A stretch of DNA of 64,000 nucleotides from NCBI GenBank assembly GCA_036339735.1, contig JAYZAL010000011.1, positions 10,157-74,156 on the forward strand, read 5' to 3'. The position numbers and the translations under genes were made by a program. Source of the stretch: Candidatus Poribacteria bacterium. GTDB lineage: Bacteria > Poribacteria > WGA-4E > UBA9662. How positions within the stretch are numbered: position 1 is the first letter of the stretch; every line of letters starts with the position of its first letter. The notes under the pieces are model-generated. The model ran no database searches, had not been told where the DNA came from, and was given only the letters and a program-made list of their open reading frames with translations. Shown here piece by piece: positions 36,512 to 37,477 of the stretch.

Positions 36512-37477
36512 CTATCTTTGTGAGCTAAAAAAATCAACCAAATCAGTTCCGTGTGTTTTGGTGTTCAATTGTTTTTCGATTTTCAAAATTCTCCCCTGCA
36601 TATCAATGTATACAGCCATTCGTTCGCTAGTCCTACTAGACGCTTCGTCTGCTGCCCCAAATAACAAGCTCAGATTCCTATCCACATCAACCAACAGTGG
36701 AAAATTAAGTCCATCACGGTCAACAAAGCGCCTGTGTGATTCGGCATCCTGCACCGAAACACCAAACACTTGGATCTCCAAATCATTAATTTGACTCATC
36801 TCATCCCGGAGAGAGCAAACCTGCGCCGTTCAGCCAGGAGTCATATCCATAGGATAAAAAGACAAAACCACATTTCGCTTATTTCTAAAATCCCTGAGCC
36901 GGTAACCTTTACCATTTTCATCGTAAGCTACGAAATCAGGAGCTAGGTGGCCAACATTTATCTCATAGCTAGTCATGGACTGGATTGTTTCCAGTACTTC
37001 TGTTCCATGTTGTGGAATATTGACATTGTTATTGATAGAGCGAACATACCCAGCTCTATCAACAACAAAGGTAGTCCGACTCGACTTTTGTTTGTCAGCT
37101 GATATACTGGAATATAATCGAGACACAACCAAATCATTATCAGATAGAAGAGGAAACCCAAATCGATATTGCTCCTGAAATTCATAATGAGATTCTTGAC
37201 TATCACCACTAATACCGTAAACCATGGTTCCTGTTGCTTCAATTTTTGTCAACTCGTCACGGAGAGACTCGAGTTCAGAAGTTCAACCACCAGTAAAATC
37301 TTTAGGGTAAAAAGCTAACACCACGTTCCGTTTTCCCCAGTGCTGGCTGAGGCTCTGTTTGTTACCAGACCCGTCCTTTAATTGAAAATCAGGCGCAACC
37401 ATTCCAACGACAACTTCTCCTCCCGCTGTGGGGGAAAGAAGTGTATCTCGTCTCTGAGTAACCATCTCTTCTGTCAT
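36512..37477 (-). CDS. Tandem two-domain BCP/PrxQ-type peroxiredoxin with two in-frame UGA codons (predicted double selenoprotein, 321 aa)
   Basis: Track ORFs 37283-37630, 36830-37252 and 36512-36799 are one frame separated only by TGA at 37283-37285 and 36830-36832. It reads FYPKDFTGG-U-TSELESLRDE and FYPMDMTPG-U-TAQVCSLRDE, i.e. PxxxTxxC with U at the peroxidatic Cys. The conserved Arg is present in both domains (SRTTFVVD, ERMAVYID). ATG 37477 follows AAGGAG. Confidence 0.88.
36800..36814 (-). promoter_or_regulatory. Candidate SECIS-like hairpin for UGA #2
   Basis: TCTCTCCGGGATGAG begins 15 nt after the UGA, is 13/15 identical to element #1, and folds as UCUC-UC[CGG]GA-U-GAGA. Confidence 0.55.
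37253..37267 (-). promoter_or_regulatory. Candidate SECIS-like hairpin for UGA #1
   Basis: TCTCTCCGTGACGAG begins 15 nt after the UGA. It folds as CUC-UC[CGU]GA-C-GAG; an alternative AACUC/GAGUU + GUC/GAC stem is also possible. Confidence 0.55.

Follow-up and report, generated by a model that had tools for sequence, protein, structure and literature searches.

A 15-nt element repeated behind two in-frame UGA codons of a tandem peroxiredoxin gene in Poribacteria is probably part of bacterial SECIS hairpins

The locus and its features

We analyzed a 64,000-nt stretch of DNA (here called the window) from contig JAYZAL010000011.1 of a Candidatus Poribacteria bacterium, which carries on its minus strand a gene for a fused two-domain peroxiredoxin (Prx) of the BCP/PrxQ type with two in-frame UGA codons, each followed at the same distance by nearly the same 15-nt element. 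From the sequence of the window, this element had been predicted to represent a compact, lineage-specific selenocysteine insertion sequence (SECIS). Our comparative analyses indicate that the element is very probably the apical part of in-frame bacterial SECIS hairpins, which would direct the insertion of selenocysteine (Sec) at both UGAs of the tandem gene. The features of the locus to which we refer are:

36512..37477, minus strand: fused two-domain BCP/PrxQ-type peroxiredoxin gene with two in-frame UGA codons (ATG at 37477, stop codon at 36514-36512)

37037..37408, minus strand: peroxiredoxin domain 1 (AhpC/TSA; best Pfam stretch, residues 75-198 of P0001), with the motif FYPKDFTGG-U-TSELESLRDE

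36560..36955, minus strand: peroxiredoxin domain 2 (Redoxin/AhpC-TSA; Pfam Redoxin, residues 226-357 of P0001), with the motif FYPMDMTPG-U-TAQVCSLRDE

37283..37285, minus strand: UGA1, putative Sec codon at the peroxidatic cysteine (Cys) position of domain 1 (TGA in 29/29 aligned orthologues; Cys in 63 Cys-type homologues from other phyla)

36830..36832, minus strand: UGA2, putative Sec codon at the peroxidatic Cys position of domain 2 (TGA in 30/30 orthologues)

37253..37267, minus strand: 15-nt element after UGA1, TCTCTCCGTGACGAG, read as TCT CTC CGT GAC GAG (S L R D E), positions 19-33 from the U of UGA1

36800..36814, minus strand: 15-nt element after UGA2, TCTCTCCGGGATGAG, read as TCT CTC CGG GAT GAG (S L R D E), positions 19-33 from the U of UGA2

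When TGA is translated as U, the minus strand has an open reading frame that spans 37630 to 36515. The tandem protein matched the Pfam families AhpC-TSA (2.1e-63, two matched stretches) and Redoxin (1.6e-34), and the best NCBIfam model above its cut-off was the thioredoxin-dependent thiol peroxidase (BCP/PrxQ; 172 bits, cut-off 140). The two domains share 38% identity at the protein level and 49% at the DNA level and are old paralogues; domain 2 has a Cys five residues past the Sec position.

Identity of the in-frame UGA codons

Near-full-length orthologues with two TGA codons were found in 35 of 41 related genomes. Thirty loci provided 29 sequences behind the first UGA (site 1) and 30 behind the second (site 2), as one locus (L020) was dropped from site 1, and all 59 recovered sites carried TGA, placed exactly in the column of the catalytic Cys. 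The dropped locus, on contig 4 of a relative in the same genus (G001), has an in-frame TAA inside its first peroxiredoxin unit in addition to both TGA codons.

The genome assembly (4.32 Mb in 107 contigs, 40.6% GC, 92% complete) encodes components of the Sec machinery, i.e., selA (579 bits, above cut-off), selB (362 bits, above cut-off, with the SelB winged-helix domains present, including domains 2 and 3) and selD (above cut-off and itself carrying a TGA). In each of 20 relatives examined, a tRNA-Sec exceeded the Rfam cut-off.

An alternative is that the two UGAs do not encode Sec, being either true stops, so that the locus would represent three open reading frames (ORFs) or a pseudogene, or codons read as Trp, Gly or Cys through near-cognate or reassigned decoding. 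Public annotation would fit this alternative, as standard gene callers either break the tandem gene up into three separate ORFs or place Trp in both active sites; all 9 full-length database versions examined (of 436 matches; public metagenome calls, P0002-P0017) show W at both Sec sites, evidently because gene callers read TGA as Trp on short contigs. It would also fit the failure to find tRNA-Sec in the source assembly, which is taken up below. On the other hand, the exact coincidence of TGA with the catalytic Cys column at 59/59 sites, a frame that is open and conserved through both UGAs, the presence of selA, selB and selD together with tRNA-Sec in all 20 relatives, and the other in-frame TGA codons of this genome, which fall where known selenoprotein families have a redox-active Cys, all contradict it, and we regard non-Sec decoding as extremely unlikely.

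Codon conservation behind the two UGAs

Direct reading of the minus strand bore out the observation with which the original prediction began. The two elements follow their UGAs after spacers of equal length (15 nt each; 37282-37268 at site 1 and 36829-36815 at site 2) and are identical at 13 of 15 bases, while the spacers are divergent, with only 5 of 15 bases identical, two of these being the AC that starts a Thr codon. Both elements are in frame and encode S-L-R-D-E, and the two mismatches between them affect the third base of the Arg codon and that of the Asp codon.

As the elements encode the same pentapeptide, their similarity could reflect protein constraint only, with the agreement in codons due to codon bias or chance. 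Two observations are in line with this explanation. First, two independent encodings of the same pentapeptide, drawn according to the codon usage of the genome, would share at least 13 of 15 bases with a probability of P = 0.098. Second, the 63 Cys-type homologues from other phyla, which have Cys in the UGA column, mostly retain [L/F]-R-D behind it. The codons themselves, however, are rare ones; CTC represents 7.1% of the Leu codons of the genome (and GAG 27.8% of the Glu codons), and among 209 L-R-D tripeptides in the long ORFs of the genome, CTC-CGG-GAT was not found and CTC-CGT-GAC was found once.

We assessed synonymous conservation by aligning the codons of 29 orthologues, all belonging to one Poribacteria order (L020 was left out). 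The Leu codon of the element was CTC in 28/28 and 29/29 sequences at the two sites, and the Arg codon was either CGG or CGT; at site 2, Asp was encoded by GAT (29/29), Glu by GAG (29/29) and the next codon was TCG (23/23). Other invariant Leu and Arg columns of the alignment used four or more codons each. When third-position identity was calculated for 324 eight-codon segments, the 12 highest values (0.77-0.87, as compared to a gene mean of 0.576) all belonged to segments starting between -1 and +8 codons from a UGA. Synonymous diversity was 0.224 in the 12 columns from +5 to +12 as compared to 0.547 in the 97 other conserved columns (P = 7e-6; Mann-Whitney test). This contrast within the alignment represents a fair control, because all columns have one tree in common. 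At the level of single bases, C25, G26 and G28 of the putative loop (positions counted from the U of the UGA) were invariant in 59/59 sequences.

If Cys-encoding forms had kept the same codons, the conservation could have been assigned to the protein alone, and we therefore looked for such forms. Among nine Cys-type BCPs with S-L-R-D, Leu was encoded by five different codons (CTG in four, TTG in two, and TTA, CTC and CTT in one each) and Arg by CGC (seven) or CGT (two). A Cys paralogue present in 20 Poribacteria genomes showed ordinary synonymous variation beside its Cys. A close Cys-type orthologue of the tandem protein was not found among database proteins or in the sister families of the phylum; the sister families have single-domain forms only, and tandem forms from Ignavibacteriales and Thorarchaeota are of the Cys type and only 32-36% identical. 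The Cys control thus rests on distant homologues and on the Cys paralogue. With synonymous sites nearly fixed in the 29 orthologues and codons varied in the Cys-type S-L-R-D homologues, the predicted RNA-level constraint on these GC-rich codons was upheld. The comparative data thereby show that chance does not account for the codon pattern behind the UGAs. The explanation by protein constraint only is largely refuted by the rare codons, by the five Leu codons of the Cys-type homologues and by a synonymous freeze limited to approx. 8 codons past each UGA in an alignment where other invariant Leu and Arg columns vary, and we consider it highly improbable.

Outside the element, the Gly codon directly 5' of UGA2 (36833-36835, minus strand) was GGC in 29/29 orthologues and the Thr codon directly after UGA2 (36827-36829, minus strand) was ACG in 25/29. 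Synonymous constraint that reaches the flanks of UGA2 is possibly an effect of decoding context.

Gene conversion between the tandem domains could also keep the two sites similar, with no selection on an RNA signal. The domains are indeed tandem paralogues within one gene, and in one relative (L022) the six residues that are identical between the two domains in codons +5 to +12 are all encoded by identical codons. The overall identity of the domains is low, however (38% and 49%, as given above), the 24-nt segment with the highest identity between the domains of the window gene falls elsewhere than at the element, and conversion would leave unexplained why each site is frozen across more than 100 genomes. 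We find this explanation barely plausible.

RNA structure at site 2

A conserved RNA structure was found behind UGA2, where the following features were delimited:

36788..36821, minus strand: site-2 SECIS hairpin, positions 12-45 from UGA2 (13 bp, two bulged U on the 3' side, loop CGGGAU at 36808-36803)

36817-36793, minus strand: site-2 core conserved in orthologues, positions 16-40

In the window, this hairpin represents both the minimum free energy (MFE) fold and the centroid fold (-11.0 kcal/mol). RNAalifold analysis of the 30 site-2 orthologues yielded a consensus of 9 pairs (16-24 with 31-40, -9.36 kcal/mol) with a bulge at position 35 and the loop CG(G/U)GAU. The inner 8 pairs were unbroken in all 30 sequences, and 97.7% of cells were paired as compared to 24.5-47.5% for slid partners. 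The covariation score was above that of 500 of 500 shuffles, and compensatory changes were observed at pair 18-38 (CG to UA) and at pair 21-34 (GU to UA, in the family of the window, or to AU). The 8-bp core alone had energies between -5.4 and -11.3 kcal/mol in the 30 orthologues. The loop begins 21 nt past the UGA (i.e., after positions 4-24, at both sites) and has G as its second base, as had been predicted.

The fold originally drawn for both elements, CUC-UC[CGN]GA-Y-GAG with a 3-nt loop, could not be retained. Its pair 21-32 can form in only 6 of 55 distinct sequences and shows zero covariation, and with window energies of just -0.5 and -1.3 kcal/mol this candidate was ruled out.

Proposed function of the element

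Taken together, these data make it very probable that the element belongs to SECIS hairpins of the tandem gene. In each domain, selenocysteine encoded by UGA would replace the peroxidatic Cys. The CUC at positions 22-24 from the U of the UGA would pair with a downstream GAG and expose a loop starting C-G-(G/U)-G 21 nt past the UGA. By analogy with known systems, the winged-helix C-terminus of SelB, carrying Sec-tRNA(Sec), would bind this hairpin and supply Sec when the UGA stands in the A site of the ribosome. What the data show is the presence of two UGAs at catalytic positions, the genes of the Sec machinery, the constraint on synonymous sites and the conserved hairpin at site 2 with its compensatory changes; SelB binding, the actual insertion of Sec and the choice of fold at site 1 are inferred. 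The same bases would also encode the conserved BCP motif S-L-R-D-E; since few sequences could satisfy both the SECIS and the S-L-R-D-E demands, the primary sequence would be frozen beyond what structure asks for. The mechanism itself is textbook knowledge; what is unusual is the doubled gene.

A number of observations weigh against this interpretation. With Rfam or default ARAGORN, tRNA-Sec was not found in the source assembly, which is 92% complete and gave only 35 tRNAs; as 20 of 20 relatives have tRNA-Sec, a gap in the assembly is the likely reason. (A tRNA-Sec call on contig 62 from a relaxed ARAGORN run was confirmed by neither Rfam nor the ARAGORN tool and was dropped.) A search of positions 36400-37700 with all 4227 Rfam families (E up to 10) produced no SECIS match and six weak, unrelated ones. 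The match between the two elements inside the window is by itself weak evidence, and part of the conservation is attributable to the protein, because Cys-type BCPs also keep L-R-D. The window sequences fold no more stably than shuffled sequence (z = +1.10 at site 1 and +0.28 at site 2), and the z-scores of relatives were mixed (-3.47 to +0.54). With a nearly invariant sequence, covariation is sparse, and the relatedness of the genomes means that the shuffle counts overstate the support.

The remaining objections concern site 1, at which the candidate is:

37248..37275, minus strand: site-1 candidate SECIS region, positions 11-38 from UGA1 (core CUC-CGUGAC-GAG, loop at 37261-37256)

The original prediction held that both sites fold alike, which the alignments do not bear out. 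RNAalifold returned no consensus structure for the 29 site-1 sequences and no structure shared by all 59 sequences of the two sites. In the window, site 1 may form 3+3 bp around an internal loop (-4.9 kcal/mol) or the MFE fold AACUC..GUC[UCUCCGU]GAC GAGUU (8 bp, 7-nt loop, -6.2 kcal/mol), whose loop UCUCCGU has no G in its first two positions; the whole 63-nt fold has -7.5 kcal/mol. Across the orthologues, three folds compete with 83.7, 81.4 and 80.3% of cells paired. The first, register A, pairs CUC with the GAG at 31-33 (83.7%). The second, register B, pairs it with the GAG at 36-38 (81.4%), shows better covariation and is the sole option where Glu is replaced by Lys or Asn; in one family it would give a loop of 11 nt. 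The third is the MFE fold of the window (80.3%), which we rejected as a conserved structure since 479 of 500 shuffles equalled it. In 7 of the 29 site-1 sequences, including that of the window, neither register A nor register B was better than -5 kcal/mol.

Distribution of the element and other selenoprotein genes

A covariance model of the peroxiredoxin element found two matches in the genome, both at its own sites (next best E = 0.04). Within the phylum, it matched 111 of 121 sampled genomes, with exactly two matches in 104 of these; the matches all fell in one order (110/112 there, as compared to 0/8 in other families).

For comparison with other selenoprotein genes of the genome, we screened 3530 TGA-spanning frames, from which 159 candidates were obtained by coding potential and 10 were chosen by eye for Pfam analysis, so that the outcome represents a minimum rather than a census. 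Eight of the 10 were confirmed, with a domain spanning the TGA, i.e., a GGR-like oxidoreductase, a ThiF/MoeB-rhodanese protein, FdhA, a TlpA-like protein, SelD, a Prx-like protein with CarboxypepD_reg domains, an HMA-domain protein and a rhodanese; two had no family. A ninth gene, PrxQ-like, came from a search of the AhpC/TSA family. The locations of these genes are:

Contigs C77, C87 (two genes), C47, C16, C70, C5, C15 and C37, outside the window: at least nine further selenoprotein genes

Each of the nine has a hairpin with its loop approx. 20-33 nt past the UGA. The loops are GGUCU, GUU or GGC in type, or CGGGC (SelD and rhodanese) or CGUGCU (MoeB), and what the hairpins share is just G-G/U in the loop. 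The SelD, rhodanese and MoeB loops have the start C-G-(G/U)-G in common with the peroxiredoxin element, while the stem sequences (SelD, rhodanese, ThiF/MoeB, FdhA, HMA and others) are unrelated to it. A genome-wide consensus of the type CUCUC-CGN-GAYGAG, for which an alignment of all UGA-containing genes had been suggested, is not supported, given the two sites found by the covariance model and the different hairpins of the nine other genes; the sequence of the element is specific to the tandem peroxiredoxin gene and its architecture is generic.

Two relatives carry a further paralogue (L014-type; G014:C1:1503527-1504372 and G032:C1:655625-656467) with two TGA codons, a 558-aa open frame and 29-31% identity to both domains, which may represent another double selenoprotein.

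The distribution of the element also bears on the possibility that the conserved bases serve another role at the nucleotide level, e.g., in pausing of the ribosome, in the stability of the mRNA, as an RNA with antisense or regulatory action, or as a binding site for a protein unrelated to SelB. In favor of such a role, the primary sequence shows more conservation than a signal of structure alone would require, and at site 1 the core CUCCGKGAY persists even in sequences in which it has a different pairing partner. Yet the element stands at an equal offset behind both UGAs and is otherwise absent from the genome, its geometry agrees with the bacterial SECIS consensus, analogous hairpins are found at the same distance in other UGA genes, and the frozen sequence is accounted for by its double coding load. 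A role other than Sec insertion is, in our view, very unlikely.

A more specific version of the SECIS interpretation is that the SelB of Poribacteria reads, besides hairpin shape, a sequence-specific loop motif, C-G-(G/U)-G, which would represent a lineage-specific recognition code with two loop classes. This idea would be in agreement with the finding that more than 100 genomes keep CUCCGKGAY behind both UGAs despite the five-base shift of its partner between registers A and B at site 1, as well as with the same loop start in the unrelated SelD, rhodanese and MoeB hairpins, beside a GGU-type class. We put it forward tentatively and think it rather unlikely; if it were true, this would further hint at a pre-adaptation of the BCP motif S-L-R-D-E for use as a SECIS.

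Comparison with known systems

The bacterial SECIS consensus (the bSECISearch model of Zhang and Gladyshev, in the form restated in the relevant section of PMC13188914) has a loop of 3-9 nt, an upper stem of 4-16 bp, a G in the first two loop positions that is usually followed by G or U, a spacing of 16-37 nt between UGA and loop, and an MFE of -7.5 kcal/mol or lower. The prediction of a compact, lineage-specific SECIS unlike that of E. coli fdhF is not supported. Site 2 is a hairpin of 9 bp (13 bp in the window) with a 6-nt loop, C-G-G/U at the loop start, a spacing of 21 nt and -11.0 kcal/mol, and as far as the window sequence goes it agrees with this consensus on all four counts (loop and stem size, loop G, spacing and energy). 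Site 1 of the window agrees in spacing and core and departs either in energy or in the loop G, depending on the fold. Two further differences from the model, as that section gives it, are that the common loop pattern has the first and a later loop base paired, which does not hold for C-G-G-G-A-U, and that the primary sequence is here almost invariant across an order. For the fdhF SECIS, the structural description in PMC8659212 gives an upper stem-loop at 15-31, a bulged U17 on the 5' side and loop bases G23/U24. Site 2 resembles it, as so described, in having the hairpin 3' of the UGA, an apical-loop G followed by U or G at a fixed distance, and a bulged U in the stem; it differs in its stem (16-24/31-40), in the 3'-side location of the bulged U (34 or 35) and in the loop G-G/U at 26-27, one codon farther from the UGA.

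The peroxiredoxin resembles the Sec-containing Prx family in the AhpC/TSA fold of its two domains and in having a putative Sec in place of the peroxidatic Cys. The prototype of that family is PrxU of Eubacterium acidaminophilum. In the table of PMC13188914, the Sec-containing Prx family (PF00578, TxxU) is entered with one Sec; the protein described here shares with that entry the fold, the position of Sec and T-x-x-U (TGGU and TPGU), and differs from it in that two domains are fused, with two Sec codons and a copy of the core behind each. Searches of an open-access library (including PMC1976440) yielded no description of a tandem two-Sec Prx form or of selenoproteins in Poribacteria.

Start codon and neighboring genes

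The start at ATG 37477 is preceded by AAGGAG 6 nt upstream, and the product from this start has no signal peptide. An alternative in-frame start, GTG 37630, overlaps the 3' end of the upstream zinc-ribbon gene. The in-frame stretch upstream of ATG 37477 (...KISIKYALLVTFFLSTSEA) is similar to the signal peptide of relatives, and GTG 37630 is the sole start there. Because the start is ambiguous (37477-37630, minus strand), export of the tandem peroxiredoxin is uncertain in the source genome. The adjoining genes are:

37611-37910, minus strand: small ORF with a CxxC zinc ribbon, immediately upstream of the peroxiredoxin gene

37925-40039, plus strand: adjoining 704-aa ORF on the opposite strand

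Conclusions

Overall, because gene callers either split its gene or print Trp, sponge-associated and marine Poribacteria have a conserved antioxidant enzyme whose annotation is wrong. The locus would provide an example of dual coding, in which a catalytic-site motif and a recoding signal occupy the same 25 bases and synonymous sites are frozen across an order. With two near-identical cores, of which only one has a clear stem, it would also offer a compact substrate for asking what a non-model SelB recognizes.

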